A DNA stretch of 64,000 nucleotides from Gemella sp. (GTDB lineage Bacteria; Bacillota; Bacilli; Staphylococcales; Gemellaceae). The DNA lies in contig JAUMWC010000003.1 in assembly GCA_030529855.1 (NCBI GenBank), positions 9,433-73,432 of the forward strand, given 5' to 3'. Both the position numbers and the translations under genes were made by a program. Below, piece after piece: positions 5,180-58,925 of this stretch. The first letter of the stretch is position 1; each line of letters opens with the position of its first letter. The notes below the pieces were generated by a model. The model worked only from the letters and a program-made list of their open reading frames with translations, was not told the DNA's origin and made no database searches.

Positions 5180-6274
5180 ATGGCTCGAGAAAAAAAAATA
5201 AAAGAAACAGCAGTAAATTCTGATAGACAAGCTGCATTGGAAAAAGCTATTAAAGACATAGAAAAAAGTTATGGAAAAGGTGCAATTATGGATCTAGATG
5301 GGGATACTTCTGTGAAAGTTGAAGTAGTATCATCAGGATCACTAGCAATAGACAAAGCATTAGGTGTTGGAGGGTATCCTCGCGGAAGAATAATCGAGGT
5401 TTATGGTCCGGAATCTTCAGGGAAGACAACAGTTACTTTACATGCTATAGCAGAGGTACAAAAACAAGGTGGAGTCGCTGCATTTATTGATGCAGAAAAT
5501 GCTCTAGATCCTGAGTATGCCAAAGCATTAGGAGTAGATTTCACAAAAGGAAGATTCTTTTTATCTCAACCTGATACAGGAGAGCAAGCTTTAGATATTA
5601 CTGAAAGATTAGTACAATCTGGTGCAATTGATATTATAGTTATTGACTCGGTAGCTGCATTAGTTCCAAGAACAGAGATTGAAGGAGAGATGGGAGATTC
5701 ACATATAGGATTGCAAGCAAGGTTGATGTCACAAGCTCTAAGAAAATTAACAGGAATAATTAACAAATCTAATGTTATTGCAATATTCATAAATCAACTT
5801 AGGGAAAAAGTTGGAGTTATGTACGGAAATCCAGAAGTAACGACTGGAGGTCGAGCACTAAAATTCTATTCAACAATAAGAATGGAAGTTAGAAGAGGGG
5901 ATCAAATAAAAGAAGGATCTGAAGTTTTAGGGAATAGAACAAAAATAAAAATTGTAAAAAATAAAGTAGCCCCTCCATTCAAAGTAGCAGAAGTAGATAT
6001 AATGTATGGGGAAGGGATATCTCCAGTAGGAGAAACCTTGGATATAGCTGCTGAATATGAGATTGTAAAGAAAGCTGGAGCATGGTATTCATACGAAGGA
6101 GAACGATTAGGTCAAGGTCGTGAATCAGTGAAAAAATTATTAAAAGAAAATCCGGAATTATACTGGGAGATTTATGGTAAAGTAAGGGAAGTATTTTTAA
6201 ATAAAGGCGCAACTTCCGATAACAATGAAATAAACGAGGATATAAAAGAAGTAAATGAGCAAGAAGATATTTAA
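5180..6274 (+). CDS. recA: Recombinase RecA
   Basis: GPESSGKTT Walker A; conserved RecA core along the full 364 aa. Confidence 0.97.
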
Positions 6275-6356
6275 AATAATTATTTGGTTGGTAATAATAG
6301 CTATAGTTGCTAGTGGTATTGTAGCAAGTATGGCTCCGTTATTTATGTAGTTTTAG

Positions 6357-6390
6357 TAACAAAACCTAGAAATTTCTAGGTTTTGTTTTT
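6357..6390 (+). terminator. Rho-independent terminator after recA
   Basis: Perfect palindrome AAAACCTAGAAATTTCTAGGTTTT followed by GTTTTT. Confidence 0.7.
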
Positions 6391-6458
6391 CATTTATAAA
6401 AGGAAAAATATGATAAAATATGATAAAATATAGTGAATATATATAATAGGAGTAGTAC

Positions 6459-10642
<4,184 letters not shown>

Positions 10643-10654
10643 AAGGTGTGCAGT

Positions 10655-12910
10655 ATGGGAATAAAATATAATTGGAAACTCCCGGATTATAATGATAATA
10701 AAATAAAAGAATTAATGTCCACATATAATGTATCAGAAAATATTGCTAAAGTACTTTATTCTAGAGAAATTACTCAAGATGAAACCATTAGAAATTATTT
10801 AATTGGAGAGTATGATGAAGGGTACGATCCATTTTTAATGTATGACATGGACAAAGCGGTTGAAAGAATAAATATAGCAATAGAGAATGAAGAAAAAATA
10901 CTGATATATGGGGATTATGATGCAGATGGTATTACTTCAACAGTACTTATGTACGAAACATTATCTTCTCTAGGTGCCAATGTATCCACATATATTCCTA
11001 GTAGATTTACTGAAGGATACGGTCCAAATAAGAAAGCATTTGGTAATATTATAGATTCAGGAGTTACCCTTATTATTACTGTTGATAATGGTATTGCAGC
11101 TGTTGAGGAAATAAAATTTGCTCAATCTTTAGGGTGTGATGTAATTCTTACCGACCATCATCAAATACAAGAAGAAATTCCAAAAGCTTACGCAGTAATA
11201 CACCCTGAACACCCATTAGCCTCCTATCCATTTGGTAAACTTGCAGGGGTTGGAGTAGCTTTTAAATTAGCTCATGCATTACTTGGAATATATCCTGATT
11301 TCCTTTTGGACTTAGTTGCAATCGGAAGTATTGCTGATATGGTACCTGTTTATTCAGAAAATAGAATATTTATTAAACAAGGACTAAAGTTATTAAATGA
11401 AGATCCACGTCTAGGAATAAAATTATTATTAGAAAAAGCTAATCATAAAACAACAATAGATGAACAAACAATAGGATTTATTATATCTCCACGATTGAAT
11501 TCTATAGGAAGAATGGCTAATGCTAAAGAGGGGGTTGCCTTATTAACAATCGAAGATGAACAAATTGCTTATCAATTAATTGAACAAATAGAACAGCACA
11601 ATATAGAGAGAAAATCTACAACTGAAAAAATAGTCTTACACGCGCAAAATAGTATAAATGAGAACAATGATATTCTTATAATGTATTCAGATGAATATCA
11701 TGAAGGTGTCTTAGGGATTGTGGCATCTAATTTGGTTGAAAAATATAAAAAGCCTGTACTAATTGCGAAAAAAGAAAATGATATTTTAAAAGGATCTGCT
11801 CGAAGTTTTTTAGATTTTAATATTTACGAAGCATTGTATTCCTTGAAAGATAATTTTATTGCATTTGGTGGTCACCATTCTGCAGCAGGTTTTTCAATAC
11901 ACATCGATAATTTAGAAGAAATTCAAAAAAAATTAAATTTTCTCTATACTGAGTATCTGCAAACATCTACTGGAAAAAATGATAAAATAATAGATTTAAA
12001 AATCGATTTTGATAATGTGAGTTATCAGTTACTTAATGACCTAGATTTTCTAAAACCTTACGGTAATAATTTTGAGAGTGTCACTATTTTATCTACAAAT
12101 GTTTCTGTAGTAGATAAAATATACTTTGGAAATGAGAAACAATATCTTAGACTTTTATTAGGGGATACTTTTTCTAATTTAGAAGCCATTACTTTTAAAG
12201 ATACTAAAGATTTTGATGTGATTAATGCGGGCGATGTTATAGATATTATATATAATCTTTCTAAAAATTATTTTAACGGGAGAACAAAATTACAAATTCA
12301 AATTATAGATGTAATGAAAAAAGACTTTTTGTTTTATGATTCAAGAGAAAATAACATTATAGTTGATAATTTAGATAAAAATGAATTAAAAATAACAACT
12401 TCATACACCGACATAAATAACAATTATTATACATATAAAGAACTAGATACTATTCCACGTACTTTTTCTATTATTAATTTATTAGATATCCCTACATCTA
12501 GTGACCAAATTTCAAAAATATTAGATTTGAACCCGATACGAATAAATCTAGCATATAAGCCCCCTGTACCTTTATATAAAAAGTATAAGATTGATAAGAA
12601 TAGATTAATAAAATTATTTAATTTATTATTAAAATACAATAAACTAGAATTAAATAATAAGGCTTCGTTGATTAATATTTTAAATTTTTTAAACACAAAT
12701 ATTGAGAGTTTAAAATTAATGTTAACTATTCTAGAAGAATTAAACTTATGCAAAAATGTAAAAAATATTATAATTTTAAATAAAGAGTATACTGCTATTG
12801 AATTAGAGAATTCCGTTACTTATGCAACAATGAAAGATAGATTTTATATAGAACAAATATTTACAGAATATAAAATTCAAGATATCAATAGAATTTTTAG
12901 TGAAAATTAA
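10655..12910 (+). CDS. recJ: Single-stranded-DNA-specific exonuclease RecJ (DHH family)
   Basis: DHH motifs (GDYDADGITS, DHHQ), DHHA1 region and a long C-terminal extension; ATG at 10655 after an AAGGTG RBS. The tracked start at 10646 is a GTG. Confidence 0.85.
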   Translation: MGIKYNWKLPDYNDNKIKELMSTYNVSENIAKVLYSREITQDETIRNYLIGEYDEGYDPFLMYDMDKAVERINIAIENEEKILIYGDYDADGITSTVLMYETLSSLGANVSTYIPSRFTEGYGPNKKAFGNIIDSGVTLIITVDNGIAAVEEIKFAQSLGCDVILTDHHQIQEEIPKAYAVIHPEHPLASYPFGKLAGVGVAFKLAHALLGIYPDFLLDLVAIGSIADMVPVYSENRIFIKQGLKLLNEDPRLGIKLLLEKANHKTTIDEQTIGFIISPRLNSIGRMANAKEGVALLTIEDEQIAYQLIEQIEQHNIERKSTTEKIVLHAQNSINENNDILIMYSDEYHEGVLGIVASNLVEKYKKPVLIAKKENDILKGSARSFLDFNIYEALYSLKDNFIAFGGHHSAAGFSIHIDNLEEIQKKLNFLYTEYLQTSTGKNDKIIDLKIDFDNVSYQLLNDLDFLKPYGNNFESVTILSTNVSVVDKIYFGNEKQYLRLLLGDTFSNLEAITFKDTKDFDVINAGDVIDIIYNLSKNYFNGRTKLQIQIIDVMKKDFLFYDSRENNIIVDNLDKNELKITTSYTDINNNYYTYKELDTIPRTFSIINLLDIPTSSDQISKILDLNPIRINLAYKPPVPLYKKYKIDKNRLIKLFNLLLKYNKLELNNKASLINILNFLNTNIESLKLMLTILEELNLCKNVKNIIILNKEYTAIELENSVTYATMKDRFYIEQIFTEYKIQDINRIFSEN

Positions 12911-18020: not shown

Positions 18021-19109
18021 ATGAATTATTCAATACTATTTTTCTTTTTTATTATTTTATTATTAATAAGTATTTATGTATATAAAAAAATTAGCATTAT
18101 TCTACTTATTATATTTCCAAACGTTAAACTTAGGTTAATTTCATTTATACTAGCAGCTATTCCACTTATAATGGTTTTCTCAAGATCATTTTCTAGTTTT
18201 CTGATATTTATTTTTTATGTAATCATATTTTCAATACTTATAGACAGCATTAATATTTATGTCAAAAGATTCAACAATAAAACTTGGAAAATAATCCATA
18301 GATTTTTAATAATTCCTATTATAGTATCTACCATATTTACATCATATGGTTATTACAATGCGCACAACATTCAGAAAACAACTTATAACATAATAAGTGA
18401 GAAAGATATAAAACAAGATTATAAAATTGCGCTTATTAGTGATTTACATTTTGGTAATAATTTTAATTTAGAAAAATTAAAAGAACAAGTAAATATAATA
18501 TCTGCAGACAATCCTGATTTAGTAGTTCTAGCCGGAGATATTGTAGATGAACAAACTCCCGTAGACACATATGAAGAGGTCTTTAAAATTTTATCAAGTA
18601 TAAAATCAACATATGGTGTGTATTACATTTTAGGGAATCATGATGAAAATAGATATATCAATCCTACTGATGATAGAAATACAAAATTAAATAATGCGAT
18701 AAAAAATACAAATATTATAGTGTTAAATGATACATCAAAACAAATAAATGGAGATATTTTTATTAGTGGACGAATTGATTATTCATACGAAAGAGATGCT
18801 CAAAGAATACCCGCTATAGATCTAATTAAAGAATTAGATACTAATAAATTCTTACTAGTGGCAGATCATCAACCAAGTCAATATAAAGAGAATAAAGAAG
18901 CCGGTTTCGACTTACAAGTATCCGGACACACTCACGCTGGTCAAATTTGGCCTTTCGGTATAGTTACAAGCAGTATAGGTTTTGACTATGGTTTATTGAA
19001 AGAGGATAATTTTAATTTAGTAGTAAGCTCTGGAATGGGATTATGGGGTATGCCAGTAAGAACAGAAGAAAAATCAGAATATGTTATAATAGAAATAAAA
19101 AAGAAGTAG
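18021..19109 (+). CDS. Membrane-anchored calcineurin-like metallophosphoesterase
   Basis: N-terminal multi-TM region, then phosphoesterase motifs DLHFG, GDIVD, GNHDE and GHTH. Confidence 0.8.
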   Translation: MNYSILFFFFIILLLISIYVYKKISIILLIIFPNVKLRLISFILAAIPLIMVFSRSFSSFLIFIFYVIIFSILIDSINIYVKRFNNKTWKIIHRFLIIPIIVSTIFTSYGYYNAHNIQKTTYNIISEKDIKQDYKIALISDLHFGNNFNLEKLKEQVNIISADNPDLVVLAGDIVDEQTPVDTYEEVFKILSSIKSTYGVYYILGNHDENRYINPTDDRNTKLNNAIKNTNIIVLNDTSKQINGDIFISGRIDYSYERDAQRIPAIDLIKELDTNKFLLVADHQPSQYKENKEAGFDLQVSGHTHAGQIWPFGIVTSSIGFDYGLLKEDNFNLVVSSGMGLWGMPVRTEEKSEYVIIEIKKK

Positions 19110-19167
19110 CTACAAATATATTTGTAGCTTTTTATTGTTTTATAAGGAAAAGTGTGGTAAAATATAT

Positions 19168-19197
19168 TTGTTCGCATAATACATATTATGTGTACAA
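19168..19197. other. dif: dif-like Xer recombination site (near-symmetric 12-6-12)
   Basis: TTGTTCGCATAA-TACATA-TTATGTGTACAA. The arms are inverted repeats (10/12). The arms resemble the canonical dif XerC arm (GCGCATAA) and XerD arm (TTATGT). It lies 31 bp upstream of the xerS-like start, at the point where gene strand polarity switches. Confidence 0.6.
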
Positions 19198-19228
19198 TTG
19201 ATAGTTTAATAATGGAGATTGTAACTTT

Positions 19229-20275
19229 ATGAATCAAAAAGATTATTATAAAAAGAAAATAAATAATGATATCAAAAATTTCCCCTCGTATATTGAAGAT
19301 TTCTTTGATACTTATTATGATATTTTGTCACCACTAACACTGCATAGATATTTAGAAAGCTATAAATCTTTTCTCTCTTGGTTAATATCAGAATCGATTT
19401 CGGATATTACTGATATTAAAGATACAAAAATTTCTACACTTGAAAATCTATCAAAAAAAGAAATGGAATCATACTTTAAATATTTATCTAGAGAGGAAAT
19501 TAATGGTAAATATAGAAGTCATGCAACAATAAACAACTATAAAGCTGCACTTCGTTCACTATACAAATTTCTTACTATTACTAGTGAAAACGAATTAGGA
19601 AAACCCTATTTTGAAAGAAATGTTATGTTGAAAATTCCTATAAACAGAGTAAAAGAAACACTATCATCTAGATCTAAAAAAATTTCTGAAAAAATTTTTA
19701 CAGAATCTCAAGATGATGATTTTTTAAATTATGTAGAATATAAGTATGAAGAAACTTTAACTAAACATCAAAAATCATTCTTTCTAAGAGACAAAAAAAG
19801 AGATATTGCTATCTTAACTTTATTCTTAAGAAGTGGTATCCGTGTCAATGAATTAGCAGGTTTAAGAATGAAAGATGTTGATTTTATCAATACAGAAATT
19901 AATATCGTAAGAAAAGGTAATAAATTGGACACAGTGATTGTAACCGAATCAGCAATGAAAAAAATTAAAGAGTATCTATTAGATTTATCTTTTGAACTTA
20001 CACGAGAAGACCCGCTATTCGTTACCAAAAATAAAAAACCAATTTCTATTAGAGCAATACAAAAATTGGTTATGAAATATACTGATTCGTATAATATACC
20101 AATGTCCCCACACAAATTAAGACACAGTTATGGTACAAAATTAGCACAAAAGACCAATGGAAATATTCCTATTATAATGACACAAATGGGACATTCAAAT
20201 AGCGATACTTCTATGTTATATATAAATGAATCTAAAAGGTTAATTAAACAATCTGTAGAAAAATTAGATGAATAA
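19229..20275 (+). CDS. xerS: XerS-like single tyrosine recombinase (Xer family, extended N-terminus)
   Basis: 348 aa. C-terminal tyrosine-recombinase catalytic region (R...HKLRHSY...MGHSNSDTSMLY, with Tyr) and a long N-terminal domain as in XerS. The gene sits immediately downstream of the dif-like site, the typical xerS/dif arrangement. Confidence 0.6.
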   Translation: MNQKDYYKKKINNDIKNFPSYIEDFFDTYYDILSPLTLHRYLESYKSFLSWLISESISDITDIKDTKISTLENLSKKEMESYFKYLSREEINGKYRSHATINNYKAALRSLYKFLTITSENELGKPYFERNVMLKIPINRVKETLSSRSKKISEKIFTESQDDDFLNYVEYKYEETLTKHQKSFFLRDKKRDIAILTLFLRSGIRVNELAGLRMKDVDFINTEINIVRKGNKLDTVIVTESAMKKIKEYLLDLSFELTREDPLFVTKNKKPISIRAIQKLVMKYTDSYNIPMSPHKLRHSYGTKLAQKTNGNIPIIMTQMGHSNSDTSMLYINESKRLIKQSVEKLDE

Positions 20276-20300
20276 AAAAGACCATATATATGGTCTTTTT
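20276..20300. terminator. Bidirectional terminator between convergent xerS and pgsA
   Basis: AAAAAGACCATATATATGGTCTTTTTT: a palindromic stem flanked by an A-run and a T-run. Confidence 0.7.
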
Positions 20301-20875
20301 TATTTGAAAACATGTTTTGAATTTTTAAAATATTCTAGTGCTGAAAGCATCGTAAGAACAACTGATAACCATAATACTATTCTATCCAACGGAATATTTA
20401 TTAGCTGGAATATTGGATTTCCAAATAATATTAATATAATTGCTACTATCTGGAGTATAGTTTTTAATTTTCCTAAAAAACCAGCTGCAATTACTTGTCC
20501 CTGCTCTACAGCTAACATTCTTAAACCAGTTACAGCAAATTCCCTAGCAATTACACAAACAACCATCCAACTCTCTATCATTTCTAGTTCTACCATAACT
20601 ATAAATGCACTTCCAACTAATAATTTATCTGCTAAAGGATCTAAAAATTTTCCCATATTTGTTACTAAATTATATTTTCTAGCTAAATATCCATCTAAAA
20701 AATCTGTTATAGACGCTAAAATAAAAATAAAATTAGCAATCAATATATTATATGATATTTCTCTACCGCCTAAAAAAGAAAGTGTTTCTGGTATATCAAA
20801 TAATAGGAAAAATATAAATAATGGTATTAAAATTGTTCTGAGTAATGTAATTTTATTAGGTAGATTCTTATCCAT
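20300..20875 (-). CDS. pgsA: CDP-diacylglycerol--glycerol-3-phosphate 3-phosphatidyltransferase
   Basis: 191 aa; CDP-alcohol phosphotransferase motif DGYLAR...G...DPLADK. Confidence 0.92.
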   Translation of the reverse strand: MDKNLPNKITLLRTILIPLFIFFLLFDIPETLSFLGGREISYNILIANFIFILASITDFLDGYLARKYNLVTNMGKFLDPLADKLLVGSAFIVMVELEMIESWMVVCVIAREFAVTGLRMLAVEQGQVIAAGFLGKLKTILQIVAIILILFGNPIFQLINIPLDRIVLWLSVVLTMLSALEYFKNSKHVFK

Positions 20876-20942
20876 TCAAACACCTCTTATATACTAATTT
20901 CAACAGAATAATTATAACATAAAATGCTAGAGATTTCTATAT

Positions 20943-23168
20943 CTACTCATTATTTTCAGCAAACTCTGGCTCTAAGAATACTTTTCTAGGTTTACTTGAA
21001 TCTGCTGGTCCTATATATCCATCTTCTTCTAATGTTTCTATTATTCTTGCAGCTCTATTATATCCTATCTTAAATCGTCTTTGTAATAGAGAAGCTGACG
21101 CTTTTTGTTGTTTTGCAATAAAGAGAAGTACTTCATGATACAGAGGATCAATCTCTTCTGAATTAGTAATTTCTCGTGATGAATTTTCCGATGGTTGCAT
21201 TGAAGGATCATATTCTGTTTCTGCTTGATTTTTAATATAATCTACTATATTTTCTACTTCTTGATCTGATAAAAATGCTCCTTGAATTCGGATCGGTTTA
21301 CTAGAATCAGCTGATTGAAATAACATATCTCCTTTTCCTAATAGAGTTTCCGCTCCTGATTTATCTAAAATTGTTCTCGAATCAATACTTGAACTCACAG
21401 CGAATGCAATTCTAGATGGGATATTAGATTTTATTACTCCTGTTATTACATCTACAGAAGGGCGTTGTGTTGCTATTATTAAATGAATTCCAGCTGCCCT
21501 AGCCATTTGAGTAATTCTTGCGATGGATTCTTCTACTTCTTTGGAAGCGACCAACATTAAATCTGCTAACTCGTCAATTATAACTACCATATATGGCATT
21601 ACTTTATATTCTTCGTCTTTCTGAGCTATTTTATTATAACCCTCTATATTTTTTACCCTAGCAATTGAAAATTCTCTGTATCTTCTCTCCATCTCTAAAA
21701 CAACTTTGTGTAAAACATCCGCTGCTTTTAATGGGTTTGTAACTACAGGGGTTAATAAATGAGGTATCCCATCATATATTGATAGTTCTACCATTTTAGG
21801 ATCTATCATTATAAGTTTTACTTGATCTGGTCTATTTTTTAATAATATACTTGTTATTATTGTATTTACACATACAGATTTACCAGAACCAGTGGATCCT
21901 GCAACTAGTAAATGAGGCATTTTATCTAATCTAGCGAATATCGACTCCCCAGAAACGTCTTTTCCTAGTGTAACAGAAAGGGGCGCATCATCTTCATTGT
22001 TAATGAATACTTCTTTCATTGTCACCAACTGATTTATTGTATTAGGTATCTCTATACCTATTAAAGATTTACCTGGAATTGGAGCTTCTATTCGAATATC
22101 TTTAGCGGCAAGATTTAAAGCAATATCACTAGAAAGGTTAGTTATTTTACTAACTTTTGTTCCAGGAGTAGGTAATATTTGAAATTGAGTTATTGAAGGG
22201 CCTACTACAGCTTTAACGATCTTTACTTCTATCCCAAAATTTTTGAAGGTTGATTGAAGTATTTTAGATTTACTAACTATATCTTCTTTAGATATTTTTT
22301 TATTCTCGATGGGATTACTCAATAAATCAAGTGGTGGTAGCTTATAATTAGCATAGTCGACATTATTTTCTTTAGTTGAACTTATAGAATCGTTATTTTC
22401 TCCTATTTCAGGTTTAGGAATACGTTTCTTCTCATTAGATAGTAGTTCTACTTTCTCTTCTTCCACTTTAAATTCATTAATATCTATTTCCAACTCGTCA
22501 TTTTTGATATTATCATAGTATTCATTTATAACATTTTTTTCTCTATCTAAATCTACCTTGTTATTACTATTTGTAGTAACAGTATTTTTTTTATGAAATA
22601 TCTGCTTAATCTTATTAAATATTTCCGAAAGATAATTAGGTAATCTATTAGGATATACACTATTTATATATAAGGAGATACTCATAATCAACAATACTAT
22701 TGTCAGCAACATCGTCCCTGTATATGATATTAAATATATAGCCATTTTTACTATGTTTCTTATTAAAACTCCTGAACCAATAATATTATTATAATTATTT
22801 ACAGCAAATATATAACTAAATGAAGAATAAGTTGGATTATTTACATATATTAATTCCCATAAAATTGAAATTAAAATTAATATACTAGATATATACCTTT
22901 TATAATTAATTGTGAGTCCGATAATATATAGAATTCCAATAATTATAACGAATATATATATTATATATATTATATTACCAAATAAATATTTTAATATATT
23001 ATCGAGTAGTTCTCCTATAATTCCCATTCGGAATATAGCAATAAAAGTTATAAAAACAATTATGGAGACAAATAGACTATTATACAGTTCTATATTATTA
23101 TTTTTTAATGATTTTATACTATCTACTACTGACAGTTTATTTTCTTTTTTCTTCTTTTTCTTTTTCAA
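20943..23168 (-). CDS. ftsK: DNA translocase FtsK/SpoIIIE
   Basis: 741 aa; N-terminal TM segments, a linker, a motor domain with Walker A GSTGSGKS, and a C-terminal winged-helix gamma domain (LYHEVLLFIAKQQKASASLLQRRFKIGYNRAARIIETLEE). Confidence 0.93.
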   Translation of the reverse strand: MKKKKKKKENKLSVVDSIKSLKNNNIELYNSLFVSIIVFITFIAIFRMGIIGELLDNILKYLFGNIIYIIYIFVIIIGILYIIGLTINYKRYISSILILISILWELIYVNNPTYSSFSYIFAVNNYNNIIGSGVLIRNIVKMAIYLISYTGTMLLTIVLLIMSISLYINSVYPNRLPNYLSEIFNKIKQIFHKKNTVTTNSNNKVDLDREKNVINEYYDNIKNDELEIDINEFKVEEEKVELLSNEKKRIPKPEIGENNDSISSTKENNVDYANYKLPPLDLLSNPIENKKISKEDIVSKSKILQSTFKNFGIEVKIVKAVVGPSITQFQILPTPGTKVSKITNLSSDIALNLAAKDIRIEAPIPGKSLIGIEIPNTINQLVTMKEVFINNEDDAPLSVTLGKDVSGESIFARLDKMPHLLVAGSTGSGKSVCVNTIITSILLKNRPDQVKLIMIDPKMVELSIYDGIPHLLTPVVTNPLKAADVLHKVVLEMERRYREFSIARVKNIEGYNKIAQKDEEYKVMPYMVVIIDELADLMLVASKEVEESIARITQMARAAGIHLIIATQRPSVDVITGVIKSNIPSRIAFAVSSSIDSRTILDKSGAETLLGKGDMLFQSADSSKPIRIQGAFLSDQEVENIVDYIKNQAETEYDPSMQPSENSSREITNSEEIDPLYHEVLLFIAKQQKASASLLQRRFKIGYNRAARIIETLEEDGYIGPADSSKPRKVFLEPEFAENNE

Positions 23169-35592: not shown

Positions 35593-35720
35593 ACTATCTC
35601 CTCTCACTATCAAATTATATCACAATAATTATAAAATATACAATTATGTTCCTTCTCCTCTGACTTAATCAGTATAAGTATGTTATAATTAAAGATGATA
35701 TTTTTAATGTGGAGAATTGT

Positions 35721-38054
35721 ATGATTAATGTAGAAGGTTATATAAATAAAATAATATTTCATAATCAAGACAATAATTATTGTATATTATCTGTGTTCTT
35801 AAACAAAAAGTATGATTTTATAGATGGTGATTACATTTCTATTGTCGGGACATTTGATATAGATTTTGTAGAGGATGAACTCTACTCATTTAAAGGAGAT
35901 ATGACACATCATAAAAAATTTGGAACACAAATTCATGCAATAGTAGCTGAAAGAGTCATAAAAAAAGATGCCTCTTCGGTAATAGATTATCTTTCTAGTA
36001 CTACTTTTCCGGGAATTGGTAAAAAAACTGCAGAACTTATCGTCGATAAATTGGGAATAGATTGCCTGGATATCATATATGCTGATAAAAATAAATTATT
36101 AGAGATTGCATCAATACCCAATCAAAAAAAAGAAATAATATATCAAAATATTATTAATAATAAACAATCCCAAGATATTATATTAAAATTAAATGACCTA
36201 GGATTCAGTAACAAAATCATTAATAAAATATACAGCTACTACAAAGGAAATACTCTAAACATAATTAATAATAATCCTTACGAATTAATCGCTACTATTA
36301 AAGGAATTGGGTTCTTAACTATTGATAGAATTGCTGATAAAATTGGAATTGAATTTAATGACTCTGAAAGAATTAAACACGCTCTAATTTTTTCAATTAA
36401 TGAACAATCATTTTCAAATGGAGATACTTATATTTTAGAGAGAGAATTATTATATAAAACCTTCAATCTATTATATAAATCTAGACCCATCCCAATAGCA
36501 AAAGAAGATATTATATCTGCCTTCAATGAGTGCATAAAAAATAGAGAACTTATACAAATCGAAGATAAAATCTTTCTTCCCTCTATATATGAAGCTGAAT
36601 ATTTTATATATAATGATATAAAATATAGAATTAAGTTATCTGAAACTGAAGAAATGCATATTCCAATATCCAAACTAGATTCTTATATACAAGAAATTGA
36701 AAACGAACTGAATATAACATATGATATAGCTCAAATTGAAGCTATTAAAAATTCCATAACCAATAATTTTTCCATTCTTACTGGAGGGCCTGGTACAGGA
36801 AAAACAACTATTATATTAGCAATAATTAAAATATTTCAAAAAATAAATAATTTTTCTCATAACGATTTACTAGATGAAGAAAAAAACATACTATGTCTAT
36901 GTGCTCCTACTGGAAAGGCAGCTAAACGTATGTCAGAAGCAACAGGTTTCTATTCATCTACTATTCACAAAGCTATTGGATGGACTACTGAAGATACTGA
37001 TATTCATGAATTTTCTAGTGATAAGTATATTAAGTCAAAATTAGTTATAGTTGATGAAACTAGTATGATTGATGTTTTTCTTATGCAAAATCTTCTGAAA
37101 ATAATTGATAAAAATTCCAAAATAGTTCTTGTAGGAGATACAGATCAATTACCATCTATATCTCCAGGTAATATATTAAAAGATTTAGTTAACACTTATA
37201 GTGTACCTACAGCACAATTAAACAAAGTCTTTAGACAAGCTAATGATTCTAGTATAATAAATTTATCTTATTCAATAAAGAATAACTTTCCTATCGATAT
37301 TTTAGAAAATTATAGTGATCGTGAATTCTTCTTCTCAAATAAAAATGATATTTTAGACACTACATTGACTATTTATAAAAATTTATTAGAGGAAACAACT
37401 CCAGATAAAATACAAATATTAATTCCACTCTATAAATCCCTATATGGTATTAATAATTTTAATACTCTTATTCAAAATACCTTCAATAATTCTACGGTTC
37501 AAATAGAATATGGTGATTTTATCTATAAATTAAATGATAGAGTTATGCAATTGGAAAATAGATCAGAAGACAATATATTTAACGGAGATACTGGTATTAT
37601 TGAATCAATTTTTGAAGAAGATGGAAAACAGAAAATAGTTGTTAACTTTGATAATAACTACATAACTTATGAAAAACAAGAATTAAACCAATTAATCCTT
37701 GCGTATTCATGCTCTATTCATAAATCTCAGGGATCTGAATTTGAATACATTATTATTCCTTTGGTAGATAACTATAATTTCATGTATAATAAAAATCTTA
37801 TTTATACAGCTATCACAAGAGCAAAAAAGAAGTTAATTTTTTGTGGGAATCCTTCCGTATTTTATAATGCTATTGCCCCAAATAATACTATACAAAGAAA
37901 TTCTTATTTATCAACTTTTTTCTCTAATTCAGGAGAAAGTTTAGAAAATTTTAGTGAAAGTACTACTTATATACTTAACGAATGTAATATCAATACAATT
38001 GATCCTATGATTGGTATGGAAAATATAAATTTATACGAAAAAAATGCAGATTAA
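35721..38054 (+). CDS. recD2: RecD2-type ATP-dependent DNA helicase (RecD/TraA family, YrrC-like)
   Basis: About 777 aa; N-terminal OB/HhH region, Walker A GGPGTGKTT, LVGDTDQLPS motif, C-terminal SH3-like region. ATG at 35721 after a GGAG RBS; the tracked start at 35709 is a GTG. Confidence 0.85.
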   Translation: MINVEGYINKIIFHNQDNNYCILSVFLNKKYDFIDGDYISIVGTFDIDFVEDELYSFKGDMTHHKKFGTQIHAIVAERVIKKDASSVIDYLSSTTFPGIGKKTAELIVDKLGIDCLDIIYADKNKLLEIASIPNQKKEIIYQNIINNKQSQDIILKLNDLGFSNKIINKIYSYYKGNTLNIINNNPYELIATIKGIGFLTIDRIADKIGIEFNDSERIKHALIFSINEQSFSNGDTYILERELLYKTFNLLYKSRPIPIAKEDIISAFNECIKNRELIQIEDKIFLPSIYEAEYFIYNDIKYRIKLSETEEMHIPISKLDSYIQEIENELNITYDIAQIEAIKNSITNNFSILTGGPGTGKTTIILAIIKIFQKINNFSHNDLLDEEKNILCLCAPTGKAAKRMSEATGFYSSTIHKAIGWTTEDTDIHEFSSDKYIKSKLVIVDETSMIDVFLMQNLLKIIDKNSKIVLVGDTDQLPSISPGNILKDLVNTYSVPTAQLNKVFRQANDSSIINLSYSIKNNFPIDILENYSDREFFFSNKNDILDTTLTIYKNLLEETTPDKIQILIPLYKSLYGINNFNTLIQNTFNNSTVQIEYGDFIYKLNDRVMQLENRSEDNIFNGDTGIIESIFEEDGKQKIVVNFDNNYITYEKQELNQLILAYSCSIHKSQGSEFEYIIIPLVDNYNFMYNKNLIYTAITRAKKKLIFCGNPSVFYNAIAPNNTIQRNSYLSTFFSNSGESLENFSESTTYILNECNINTIDPMIGMENINLYEKNAD

Positions 38055-50868: not shown

Positions 50869-51591
50869 TTATTTTCTTAATATTTTTTCTGCATTTTTTC
50901 TACATAATTTATCAGCTAAATCTTTTCCATATTTTGAAGTGATAAATTCATAAGCTTCTTTTAAATGTGGTTTTCTATCTTCTAAATTATGCATATCTGT
51001 AGCTACAAATGAAATTAAATCATTATCTATAAAATATTTAGCTCTTTTTTTATAGACTTTATGTTTGTCTCCAAAAAGCTTAATTTTTAATACACTGGAT
51101 GAATTGACTTGCATTAAAGCACCTTTGTGTATTAGTTCTTTAACTTGTTCCTTGTTATTTTCTAAACAATTATATCTTTCAATATGTGCTAATATTGGCT
51201 TTAAACCTAATAATATTATAGAATCAACAGCAGAAAAAATTTCTTTATACATAACATTAGAACTAAATTCTAATAATACATATTCTGTTGACGCTAAGGT
51301 TGGGGTTGTTTTATTTTCTAGCTTTTCTAATATACTAGAAGTATAGTATAATTCCCCACCGTAATAAATATCTAAATCGCTATATATTGATTTTAATTTT
51401 TCTTTTAAAATCAAGAAATTTTCTTTAATTTTTTCCTCTGGTGTATTAAACATCCCTCTTCGTCTATGCGACGTGGCTATTATTGATCTAATTCCTTGAG
51501 AATATGCCTCTTCTACTAATTTTAGACTATCTTCTAGTGTTCTAGGACCATCGTCTACTCCAAAAATTATATGAGAATGTATATCTATCAT
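50869..51591 (-). CDS. cpsB: PHP-family Mn-dependent protein-tyrosine phosphatase (CpsB/YwqE type)
   Basis: 240 aa; MIDIHSHIIFGVDDGP N-terminal PHP motif, then ATSH and further histidine motifs. Confidence 0.88.
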   Translation of the reverse strand: MIDIHSHIIFGVDDGPRTLEDSLKLVEEAYSQGIRSIIATSHRRRGMFNTPEEKIKENFLILKEKLKSIYSDLDIYYGGELYYTSSILEKLENKTTPTLASTEYVLLEFSSNVMYKEIFSAVDSIILLGLKPILAHIERYNCLENNKEQVKELIHKGALMQVNSSSVLKIKLFGDKHKVYKKRAKYFIDNDLISFVATDMHNLEDRKPHLKEAYEFITSKYGKDLADKLCRKNAEKILRK

Positions 51592-53027
51592 TCTTTAGCT
51601 CCAATGACATCTTCCATATTATTTTTAACTTCTTTTAGACTATTTTCATCAACCTTCATCATATATAAATTATACCCCGGCATCGCATAAGAAGGCATTC
51701 CCATTGTTCCTTGTCCCTCTAAAGCCTGTGATGAGACATTGTATTCTGATTTCTTTTCTACCTGCTCATTTGCTAATGACATTAATTGTTCTACTGGCAT
51801 GTCAGTTTGAATAGAAGTAGACAACTCACTAATAATATCTTGCGAATTCAATAATGCATTACTTGTAGTTAATTTCTTTATAATTGCCGTTATTACTTTT
51901 TGTTGATTTTTACCTCTATCATGATCACCACCAGATAATCCATATCGCTCTCTTACAAATTCAAGTGCTTGCTCTGAATTAAGCGTTATATTCCCTTGAC
52001 GATATACCTGTCCATCTCTTGTTCCTTTGAATTCTTGATCATTATAAACCTCAATTCCACCTAATATATCCACCAATTTTATAAATGAAGTAAAGTTAAT
52101 TCTTGCATAATAATTAATATCGATATTATAAAGATTTTCTAAAGTATGTATAGATGCATCTACCCCATAAACACCAGCATGTGTTAACTTATCATATTGA
52201 TCATTTCCTCCATCTGCTATTCTAACATATGAATCCCTAGGTGTTGTCGTTAAAAGAATCTTATTAGTTTTCTTATTAATTGTCATAATAATATTAACAT
52301 CTGATCTAGATACTGATGTTATTGGCCCATATGTATCTATTCCGCTAATATATATATTAAGAACATCCGAATTAGAACTTACTTTATTTTGTCGTTTAGC
52401 AACTTCTTTAGTGTAAGTTGTTTTATATATTTTTTTTATCTTATTAGAATATTCTGGATCATTCATTTCTAATATATTTTCATATGCGCTACTTATTATT
52501 ACAGCTTTGTTTTGAGAGTTTACTAAATCATCATAGGCTTTTACATAAGACTCCGCCTCTATTACTTCAAACGTTACACCCTCTTTGTTCTTTATATCTG
52601 AAATAAATTTATTTATATTTTCAGTATCTATTTTCACAGGTGCTGCAACTTCAGATGAATTTAAATCCTGTATGCTATTTATACTAGAGTCTTTAGGTAC
52701 TACAATACTCATTTCTGTAGTATTTATATTTGTATTCTTATTTAAATTACCAATTAAATTAACTGTACTATTTATCTGAGAATACGCAAATGCTGTTGTA
52801 CCCAATAATAATATTGAAGAAATTAAAACAAGTATCTTCGCCTTGTTTCTTATTAACATAATTAACAGTACTAATAACACCACTGCCAAAATTGCTGTAA
52901 TAATATAATTAACATTCATAAATGCCAACATATTATATTTAAAAATAGCATATATCATGAATGCTGAAGATATTATTGCTAAAATTAGTAATATAGAATT
53001 AATAACTTTAAAAATTTTTGAATTCAT
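51588..53027 (-). CDS. cpsA: LytR-CpsA-Psr (LCP) family phosphotransferase, CpsA-like
   Basis: 479 aa; three N-terminal TM segments, an accessory domain, then the LCP domain (TTPRDSYVRIADGGNDQYDKLTHAGVYG). Overlaps cpsB by 4 bp. Confidence 0.85.
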   Translation of the reverse strand: MNSKIFKVINSILLILAIISSAFMIYAIFKYNMLAFMNVNYIITAILAVVLLVLLIMLIRNKAKILVLISSILLLGTTAFAYSQINSTVNLIGNLNKNTNINTTEMSIVVPKDSSINSIQDLNSSEVAAPVKIDTENINKFISDIKNKEGVTFEVIEAESYVKAYDDLVNSQNKAVIISSAYENILEMNDPEYSNKIKKIYKTTYTKEVAKRQNKVSSNSDVLNIYISGIDTYGPITSVSRSDVNIIMTINKKTNKILLTTTPRDSYVRIADGGNDQYDKLTHAGVYGVDASIHTLENLYNIDINYYARINFTSFIKLVDILGGIEVYNDQEFKGTRDGQVYRQGNITLNSEQALEFVRERYGLSGGDHDRGKNQQKVITAIIKKLTTSNALLNSQDIISELSTSIQTDMPVEQLMSLANEQVEKKSEYNVSSQALEGQGTMGMPSYAMPGYNLYMMKVDENSLKEVKNNMEDVIGAKE

Positions 53028-53133: not shown

Positions 53134-53619
53134 TTGGAGGTCGTAAATATGAATATAGTTGACCATAAAGAAACATTTATTTCTCAAGCTAAATCATTAA
53201 TTCAAGGAGAAGAAAATCTTTTTGCTAATCTTTCTAATCTATCTGCTCTATATAATGAATATATTGATGATATAAACTGGATAGGATTTTATTTACTTGA
53301 TGAAAAAAATAATAATCTTGTTTTAGGTCCATTTCAAGGAAAAGTGGCATGTATTAGAATCCCTTTTAACAAAGGTGTTTGTGGTCACTGCTATACAATT
53401 CAAGAGGCAGTCTATGTTGAGGATGTCCACAAGTTCCCAGGGCATATAGCATGTGATTCTGCAACAAATAGTGAATTAGTTATTCCTATTTTAAAAAAAG
53501 AAAAAGTAGTTGCGCTACTTGATATTGACTCTATTTCGTTTGATAGATTTTCTAAAGAAGAAATAGATGTACTTATTGACGTAACAAATCAAATTTTCAA
53601 TGAACTTAATTTCGAATAA
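53134..53619 (+). CDS. GAF-domain protein, free methionine-(R)-sulfoxide reductase-like (YtsP / fRMsr family)
   Basis: About 160 aa; GAF-domain signature with conserved cysteines (VACIRIP...GVCGHCY...HIACDS). The start may instead be MNIVDH at 53149. Confidence 0.75.
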   Translation: MEVVNMNIVDHKETFISQAKSLIQGEENLFANLSNLSALYNEYIDDINWIGFYLLDEKNNNLVLGPFQGKVACIRIPFNKGVCGHCYTIQEAVYVEDVHKFPGHIACDSATNSELVIPILKKEKVVALLDIDSISFDRFSKEEIDVLIDVTNQIFNELNFE

Positions 53620-58794: not shown

Positions 58795-58925
58795 GCACCT
58801 CCTTAAATTTTTACTAAGACTCGCCAAATAAGGTGGATTACTCTCTTTTAAACCCTATTCGTGCGGTTGTAGTAGCAGGAGCTACTTCAACATTAATGAT
58901 TCTACCATACTATTCAAATTGAGTC
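58795..58925 (-). ncRNA. Putative ribosomal protein L21 leader (cis-regulatory 5' UTR)
   Basis: About 130-nt untranslated region immediately upstream of rplU with GC-rich self-complementary segments (GCTCCTGCTACTACAACCGCACGAATAGGG). Firmicutes are known to carry a structured L21 leader at this position. I could not verify it against a covariance model. Confidence 0.3.

Follow-up and report, generated by a model that had tools for sequence, protein, structure and literature searches.

We analyzed a 64,000-nucleotide stretch of a metagenome-assembled Gemella sp. genome (contig JAUMWC010000003.1, forward-strand positions 9,433–73,432; hereafter the window, with positions counted from its first nucleotide). 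It contains xerS (19229–20275, + strand), a gene for a tyrosine recombinase of 348 amino acids, and, directly upstream of it, a 30-bp imperfect palindrome (19168–19197, + strand), which is a candidate dif-like recombination site. The region at 19–20.3 kb is likely the replication terminus of Gemella, with the palindrome serving as the chromosomal dif and the adjacent xerS encoding its dedicated single recombinase. This reading, the terminus of which had been proposed in an earlier look at the window (hereafter the original prediction), is directly supported by convergent gene polarity and a reversal of GC skew, by the single-copy palindrome and its conservation in relatives, and by the intact active site of an XerS-family enzyme; like sites were also found beside related xerS genes.

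The Gemella locus is a known kind of system, namely a terminus-located Xer module with a single recombinase. What is new, as far as the sequences indicate, is that its cognate site is similar to a classical dif and common to plasmid-borne xerS modules, and is not difSL, the XerS site of streptococci and lactococci. In the papers searched, a 2017 review and a 2022 study among them, XerS/difSL is treated as a hallmark of streptococci and lactococci, XerS is restricted to these bacteria (PMC1914069, PMC5357621, and PMC9765430), and XerS is nowhere mentioned together with Gemella. The automatic annotation of NCBI already labels the Gemella protein XerS. If the reading given above holds, an XerS-family module marks the terminus in another family of Bacilli, with its nearest relatives on large plasmids and further relatives on pXO1 and enterococcal megaplasmids. 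The locus would then offer a concrete, testable case for the question of how dimer resolution by one recombinase evolves and takes the place of XerCD.

Terminus signatures and conservation of the site

The G+C content of the window was about 28%, and its XerS and PyrH matched NCBI proteins of a Gemella contig at 100% identity. In the map of open reading frames (ORFs), every long ORF over 61–20275 was on the + strand, and 39 long ORFs over 20300–63995 were on the − strand, in agreement with the original prediction for both sides. The exceptions to the right of 20300 were recD2 (35709–38054, + strand), a GAF-domain gene (53134–53619, + strand), and a doubtful TTG ORF of 100 amino acids. Matches to NCBIfam and Pfam profiles indicated that the ORFs setting the polarity are real housekeeping genes. 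The two orientations converged in the 24-bp gap between xerS and pgsA (20276–20299). The palindrome was located in the preceding intergenic region (19110–19228), and the strand flip was about 1.1 kb, or one gene, to its right, not in the same interval as had been claimed.

GC skew was positive to the left of about 19 kb (+0.09 to +0.27) and negative to the right of about 20 kb (−0.1 to −0.35), with a uniform sign over 19 kb and 44 kb, respectively, on the two sides of the switch. The cumulative G−C value reached its maximum at 19,972, within a plateau of about 19.5–20.3 kb. The sign change anticipated at about 19–20 kb was thus found at 19–20.3 kb in the local skew of the window. Because the left + strand is G-rich, the right + strand is C-rich, and the genes converge, this pattern is the signature of a terminus and not of an origin.

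The 28-bp core of the palindrome (19169–19196) consists of TGTTCGCATAA (left arm), TACATA (center), and TTATGTGTACA (right arm), which gives an apparent layout of 11-6-11. The two palindrome arms (19168–19181 and 19184–19197) were complementary at 86%. The dif-like palindrome named in the original prediction proved to be unique: even with three mismatches allowed, the 30-mer occurred once in the 64 kb, and the expectation from shuffles was zero. The distance from its end to the start codon of xerS was 31 bp.

To assess conservation, we used loci of Gemella and Gemelliphila, 33 of them from species-representative genomes and four from complete or draft genomes. One of these 37 loci starts inside xerS and cannot show the site, and the site counts cover the remaining 36. 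The site was present directly upstream of xerS, in exactly one copy per locus, in all 36. In the site-anchored alignment, TTCG[CT]ATAATACATATTAT was invariant and the flanks on both sides diverged; only ten variants of the 30-mer were found across the aligned loci. Since the identity of XerS among the related loci drops to 72%, the conservation of the site reflects more than recent common ancestry. Twenty-one loci were at least 11 kb long, and in each of them the cumulative skew peaked locally on the xerS side of the site, at a distance of 48–1474 bp. The genes to the right of xerS were different in two loci, those of Gemelliphila palaticanis (L003) and Gemella sp. GH3 (L004), yet the change of strand and of skew was retained there. 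In the complete 1,558,665-bp genome CP076443.1, xerS was located at 45% of the record, counted from its start, which also speaks for the terminus. The conserved 30-mer can serve as a ready terminus marker for Gemella assemblies and could be used as an integration site when genetic tools are built for these oral bacteria.

Three loci showed peculiarities. In G. palaticanis CIP 106318, the site of about 30 bp (L003, 5945–5976) was inverted, by itself, relative to xerS, and the promoter (TTGCAA-17 nt-TATAAT) and the ribosome-binding site around it kept their usual order and orientation. The opposite orientation of the site was found in 35 of the 35 other loci and in the window, so its orientation relative to xerS is not fixed. 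Gemella-type site-xerS loci with Gemella synteny were also found in a record titled 'Streptococcus sp. UMB1385' (L005, PNGU01000002.1) and in a metagenome-assembled genome labeled 'uncultured Erysipelotrichaceae bacterium' (L015, CAUSWF010000031.1). The XerS proteins of both were 75% identical to that of the window, and these records are probably mislabeled or mis-binned Gemella sequence.

The XerS enzyme and the class of the site beside it

The presence of an XerS-like recombinase gene next to the site was confirmed. The protein scored 343.8 bits against the NCBIfam XerS equivalog model NF003462 (cut-off, 267), with residues 3–347 of 348 aligned. The runner-up family model was XerA with 133 bits, and the scores on the XerC model (103 bits; cut-off, 335) and the XerD model (88 bits; cut-off, 330) were too low to pass. 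The catalytic set was complete (R205, K229, H295, R298, H322, and Y331), and Y331 was aligned with the catalytic Y341 of Lactococcus lactis XerS, for which a Y341F mutant has been described (PMC2965235).

An authentic XerS set was assembled from 120 streptococcal and lactococcal metagenome loci (985 kb in total) that were retrieved with the difSL of L. lactis (PMC2965235). Translation of the gene downstream of difSL in each locus yielded 69 distinct proteins of 356–357 amino acids. The Gemella XerS was 34–40% identical to these proteins and colinear with them over essentially the full length, including the XerS-specific N-terminal half and the catalytic residues. On these sequence comparisons, the Gemella enzyme does belong to the XerS family, as a distant member.

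No second tyrosine recombinase was found among the window ORFs scanned against NCBIfam and Pfam. The xerC and xerD genes of Bacillus and Staphylococcus are located upstream of rpsB-tsf-pyrH or beside fur. At these two positions, in two Gemella genomes, no integrase-family gene was present, which bears weakly on the absence of XerCD. Streptococci are known to retain XerD-like genes that are not involved in the XerS system (PMC1914069).

For comparison with classical dif sites, sequences were taken from the table in PMC2731167. The Gemella site matched the dif of Nitrosococcus oceani at 24 of 28 positions, in register and with 23 consecutive identities, such that the left arm and the center were nearly identical. 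The matches to the dif sites of Neisseria meningitidis and Escherichia coli were 21/28 and 20/28, respectively. These identity values were reached by none of 2,000 shuffles. With each of the three queries, position 19169 scored highest in the 64 kb, ahead of the runner-up by one identity in the case of E. coli. The left arm resembled the XerC arm, and the right arm matched the XerD arm TTATGT(T/A)AA(A/C)T at 6–7 of 11 positions.

Other known site classes were tried and rejected. In a scan of the window with difSL, the site was not among the best matches, and the identities with difH (15–16/33) were at chance level. The dif of Bacillus subtilis has arms unlike those of the Gemella site. With this query, the site scored 19/28 and unrelated AT-rich positions scored 20, indicating no specific likeness to the XerCD site of this Firmicute.

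Similar sites accompany the closest relatives of the Gemella enzyme. With the Gemella XerS as the tblastn query, genes of the XerS family were detected on 923 plasmid records (410 from Bacillus and 382 from Enterococcus), mostly large plasmids, including pXO1 and megaplasmids of B. thuringiensis and Enterococcus faecium. The closest plasmid copies, from Niallia, Alkalihalophilus, and Cytobacillus, showed 45–48% identity and were nearer than streptococcal XerS. In the closest relatives examined (47–48% identity for XerS of Niallia and Alkalihalophilus), xerS was directly preceded by a site with an 11-6-11 layout and TTCG...CGAA arms: TGTTCGTAAAA-ATTGTA-TTATACGAACA on a Niallia plasmid and TATTCGTATTA-ATTGTC-TTATACGAACA on pBpOF4-02 of Alkalihalophilus pseudofirmus, compared with TGTTCGYATAA-TACATA-TTATATGTATA in Gemella. 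A relative with XerS 54–56% identical to that of Gemella had the upstream site TATTCGCATAA-TACAGG-TTTTACGAATA. In a simple midpoint-rooted neighbor-joining tree with no bootstraps, the Gemella XerS and this relative grouped with the plasmid copies of Bacillaceae and were separate from the XerS proteins linked to difSL. The like sites upstream of the closest relatives, together with the different arms of B. subtilis dif, indicate that the site type goes with this branch of XerS, on Bacillaceae plasmids as well, and not with the XerCD of the plasmid host.

A clear Gemella-type site was absent upstream of xerS on a Lactobacillus chromosome, an L. crispatus plasmid, pXO1, Cytobacillus pBO1, and a Peribacillus chromosome, which indicates that the site type is common only to the Gemella-proximal clade. 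On pXO1 of B. anthracis (L170), xerS was located at 167094–168179. E. faecium plasmids (L171 and L172) carried a perfect 11-6-11 palindrome of unrelated sequence, TCTATAATTGG-TATAGT-CCAATTATAGA, 38 bp before the start codon, which from its sequence is likely a plasmid multimer-resolution site of a different class. In a phage collection, only four matches to XerS were found, and these were partial and weak.

The Gemella module thus shares with the Bacillaceae plasmid modules, which are known from annotation alone, the closest XerS outside Gemellaceae and upstream 11-6-11 sites with the same arms. It differs in its location, since the Bacillaceae modules are on plasmids of 100–390 kb, where they presumably resolve plasmid multimers, and not at a chromosomal terminus. 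It also differs in the right arm, which is a nearly perfect inverted left arm on the plasmids and degenerate in Gemella. The classical-dif-like site held in common with plasmid xerS modules suggests that the module was recruited separately. We tentatively propose, as a possibility somewhat short of even odds, that Gemellaceae resolve chromosome dimers by a non-streptococcal XerS, in which a plasmid-type xerS and its 11-6-11 TTCG...CGAA cassette were separately recruited to the terminus and replaced XerCD. If so, XerS modules for the resolution of large replicons would be widespread in Bacilli and would have been adopted by chromosomes more than once, and the difSL of streptococci would have diverged from an ancestral site of classical appearance and would not be the family-defining substrate.

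The Gemella module and XerS/difSL of Streptococcus and Lactococcus (PMC1914069 and PMC2965235) both have one colinear XerS-family recombinase of about 350 amino acids with equal catalytic residues, a site directly upstream of the gene that overlaps the promoter region, a location at the GC-skew switch, and a septal-type FtsK with a gamma domain encoded in the genome. In contrast, the Gemella XerS is on a separate tree branch at 34–40% identity, and its host belongs to Gemellaceae, outside Streptococcaceae. The Gemella site has an apparent layout of 11-6-11, whereas difSL is 31 bp with a reported central region of 11 bp (PMC5357621). The Gemella site is downstream of the −10 box, whereas the right end of L. 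lactis-like difSL (TTGACA) resembles a −35 box. ftsK is a near neighbor in Gemella, whereas it was near difSL in none of the 120 streptococcal and lactococcal loci. The series of sites and enzymes from plasmids, Gemella, and streptococci should be useful for the question of how XerS reads the arms and for the length of the central region. In an L. lactis-like metagenome contig (L058), a TTGACA, 18 nt, and TATACT arrangement about 60 bp upstream of xerS resembled a xerS promoter.

Likeness to XerCD/dif of E. coli and B. subtilis (CodV/RipX) extends to a site length of 28 bp, an apparent division into 11-bp arms and a center of 6 bp, a location at the terminus, and a presumed FtsK partner. However, one recombinase is encoded beside the Gemella site and the XerD-arm consensus is not kept, whereas XerCD are two paralogues encoded far from their site. 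Dimer resolution by a single recombinase at the terminus is also known for XerH/difH of Helicobacter and Campylobacter and for XerL/dif of Legionellales (PMC2731167 and PMC9765430). As in Gemella, xerH is linked to its site, whereas xerL is far from its own. Both recombinases belong to lineages unrelated to the Gemella XerS, and difH resembles difSL and not the Gemella site.

Proposed mechanism and rival explanations

The proposed mechanism is modeled on the experimentally studied XerS/difSL of L. lactis and S. pneumoniae (PMC1914069 and PMC2965235). A chromosome dimer would arise by homologous recombination, and FtsK anchored at the septum, whose gene lies 0.7 kb downstream of xerS, would pump DNA toward the terminus and thereby bring both dif copies of the dimer together. 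With each arm of both copies occupied, XerS would then perform two strand exchanges, by which monomers would be restored. By analogy, XerS would act alone at the site, recombination there would depend on FtsK, a membrane-anchored translocase and the presumed activator, and the central region of the site would be 6 bp long.

The site may also control its own recombinase gene. A putative xerS promoter (19135–19163, + strand) consists of −35 TTGTTT (19135–19140), a 17-nt spacer, and the extended −10 TGGTAAAAT (19155–19163). It was read by eye, with the −35 matching at three of six positions, and was missed by a consensus promoter scan. Most Gemella loci had a near-consensus promoter, TTGAAA-17 nt-TATAAT with TG ahead of the TATAAT, and 5–6 nt separated it from the left arm. 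The predicted transcription start of xerS would fall inside the left arm, and autorepression by XerS is plausible because the site covers this position. The same idea was proposed for difSL by Le Bourgeois and colleagues (PMC1914069). In Gemella, occupancy by XerS of a site overlapping the promoter and transcription start would probably repress xerS as well.

Several observations weigh against the reading of this locus as the terminus with an XerS-specific dif. The best ungapped match of the site to the 31-bp difSL consensus ATCTTTCCGAAAAACTRTAATTTTCTTGAMA was 16–17/31, a chance-level value reached by 8–65% of shuffles. The right arm was degenerate, with 7–9 of 11 positions matching the inverted left arm, and a right arm that is a degenerate inverted left arm and not an XerD arm has the look expected of a single-recombinase site. 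In the record CP022615.1, xerS was located at 82%, counted from the record start. The last point concerns FtsK-orienting polar sequences (KOPS). The prediction that KOPS-like oligomers converge on the site was correct in that GAAGAAG, the KOPS of Lactococcus, occurred in 26 leading-strand and 2 lagging-strand copies that point at the site from both sides, with a ratio of 14:1 for GTAGAAG in the window. However, dozens of purine-rich 7- and 8-mers in the window were equally skewed and nearly all genes are co-oriented with replication, so the skew of GAAGAAG is non-discriminating, and KOPS-like skew cannot be separated from coding-strand bias. GAGAAGGG and GGGCAGGG had zero occurrences when the window was searched for KOPS.

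The in-register likeness to classical dif (20–24/28, above all 2,000 shuffles) and the dissimilarity to difSL would also be expected if the site were a classical dif used by XerC and XerD encoded elsewhere, with xerS a bystander or an accessory neighbor. We consider this unlikely, since the usually well-conserved XerD arm (TTATGTTAAAT or TTATGTAAACT) was matched at 6–7/11 only and the two arms resemble each other, as a single enzyme predicts. In addition, the site adjoins xerS in every Gemella and Gemelliphila locus that shows the upstream region, the site type accompanies xerS on Bacillaceae plasmids, and the two positions of xerC and xerD in Bacillus and Staphylococcus had no integrase gene in the two Gemella genomes. 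XerS, and not XerCD, is likely to act on the Gemella site. A shade less probable than the use of the site by XerCD is the explanation that xerS and its site are a resolution or integration module of a plasmid or another element that landed at the strand switch by coincidence and has no role in dimer resolution. The occurrence of the family on plasmids, the grouping of the Gemella XerS with plasmid copies and not with streptococcal XerS in the simple tree, and differences between species in the genes directly flanking the module are compatible with such an origin. Nevertheless, the slot efp ... site-xerS ... pgsA-ftsK is kept through the genus, down to 72% XerS identity, which indicates vertical inheritance under selection. 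Moreover, the site is in one copy, no direct repeat flanks it in the window and related loci, no plasmid or phage genes were found nearby among the profile-scanned ORFs of the window, and the module coincided with the skew switch in all 21 loci.

It is very improbable that the palindrome is merely a regulatory element of xerS, that is, an operator or a hairpin in the 5′-untranslated region, and no recombination substrate. The palindrome does follow the predicted −10 box of xerS and precede its ribosome-binding site, and a 13-pair hairpin is possible in the RNA. The hairpin was rejected, however, because the fold was no more stable than those of shuffles (z = −0.92), and arm positions varied without compensation, for example, with C-A at pair 8 in six of the ten variants; together, these two results indicate a protein-bound DNA site. 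The site is conserved in G. palaticanis even though the whole of it is inverted between promoter and ribosome-binding site, and it is laid out like the core site of a tyrosine recombinase, as are the sites of related modules. An operator role would be compatible with a dif role and would not replace it. The least probable explanation is that the polarity and skew switch is the breakpoint of a recent inversion. The view is limited to 64 kb, and rearrangements do occur in the region, as in the ackA..recD2 block described below. Against an inversion, species with XerS identities as low as 72% have the switch between the same two genes, including those with different neighbors on the right, the skew is uniform over 19 kb and 44 kb, and the G-rich + strand on the left with converging genes gives the direction of a terminus and not of an origin.

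Neighboring genes and other features of the window

The convergent arrangement of xerS with pgsA and ftsK was verified by the ORF map and profile matches. A bidirectional terminator hairpin with a 15-pair stem (20271–20304) was found by a terminator scan in the xerS/pgsA gap, at the convergence point. pgsA (20300–20875, − strand; TIGR00560, 184.6 bits; cut-off, 109) is the first gene of the right replichore. The full-length ftsK (20943–23168, − strand) encodes the Pfam domains FtsK_alpha, FtsK_SpoIIIE, and the winged-helix FtsK_gamma, and the N-terminus of the protein has hydrophobic segments.

Most Gemella keep the order efp ... site-xerS, followed by the convergent pgsA ... ftsK-rdgB-murI, with ftsK 1–3.5 kb from xerS. 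The gene was not at that position in G. palaticanis and Gemella sp. GH3. Its absence there and from the 120 difSL loci (985 kb examined) indicates lineage-specific synteny, such that ftsK is no part of the XerS module. The proximity of ftsK, recombinase, and site, which had been described as unusually compact, is real, but it is a lineage-specific arrangement that is usual in most Gemella.

On the other side, the left-replichore gene that immediately precedes the site encodes a membrane metallophosphoesterase (18021–19109, + strand; Pfam Metallophos, 67 bits). It is followed by an intrinsic terminator with a 9-bp stem and a T-run (19108–19139, + strand), found by the terminator scan and also as an inverted repeat. 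This slot is variable, and the metallophosphoesterase gene was present in L001, L002, and L004, with other genes there in most other Gemella loci.

The + strand genes of the left side include pyrH, frr, a UPF0154 gene, rluD, fba, ackA, recA, pcrA, ligA, recJ, genes for a phosphoribosyltransferase and an M16 peptidase, trmB, efp, the metallophosphoesterase gene, and xerS. The − strand genes of the right side include pgsA, ftsK, rdgB, murI, recO, era, ybeY, uvrC, rsmB, fmt, mltG, thyA, mfd, prs, mutS2, lon, clpX, cpsA/B-like genes, cshA, relA, and others. In another Gemella (L164, JAHKEI010000001.1, 12809–20717), fba was directly followed by recD2 (− strand) and then by NIF3, thyA, dfrA ... mltG on the + strand, which are right-arm genes of the window (compared region, 3793–38054). 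One of the two junctions was seen, and the arrangement fits an inversion of the block ackA..recD2, with ends 15.4 kb to the left and 18.9 kb to the right of the site, approximately symmetric about the terminus; this symmetry also speaks for the terminus reading.

No tRNA gene was found by a tRNA scan of the 64 kb. An Rfam scan of the window gave a single match, far from the xerS locus, to a ribosomal protein L21 leader (58807–58878, − strand; RF00559, 64.8 bits) upstream of the rplU-ysxB-rpmA operon. Two genes at 50869–53027 (− strand) scored strongly on models of streptococcal capsule regulators, with 665 bits for the LCP-family CpsA model (cut-off, 650) and 363 bits, under the cut-off of 400, for the Cps4B model; no obvious capsule biosynthesis genes adjoined the pair within the window. 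The sequence up to about 25 kb from the terminus (5180–12910 and 20943–46592) was unusually rich in DNA repair and recombination genes, with recA, pcrA, ligA, and recJ on the left and ftsK, rdgB, recO, uvrC, recD2, a methyladenine glycosylase gene, mfd, and mutS2 on the right.

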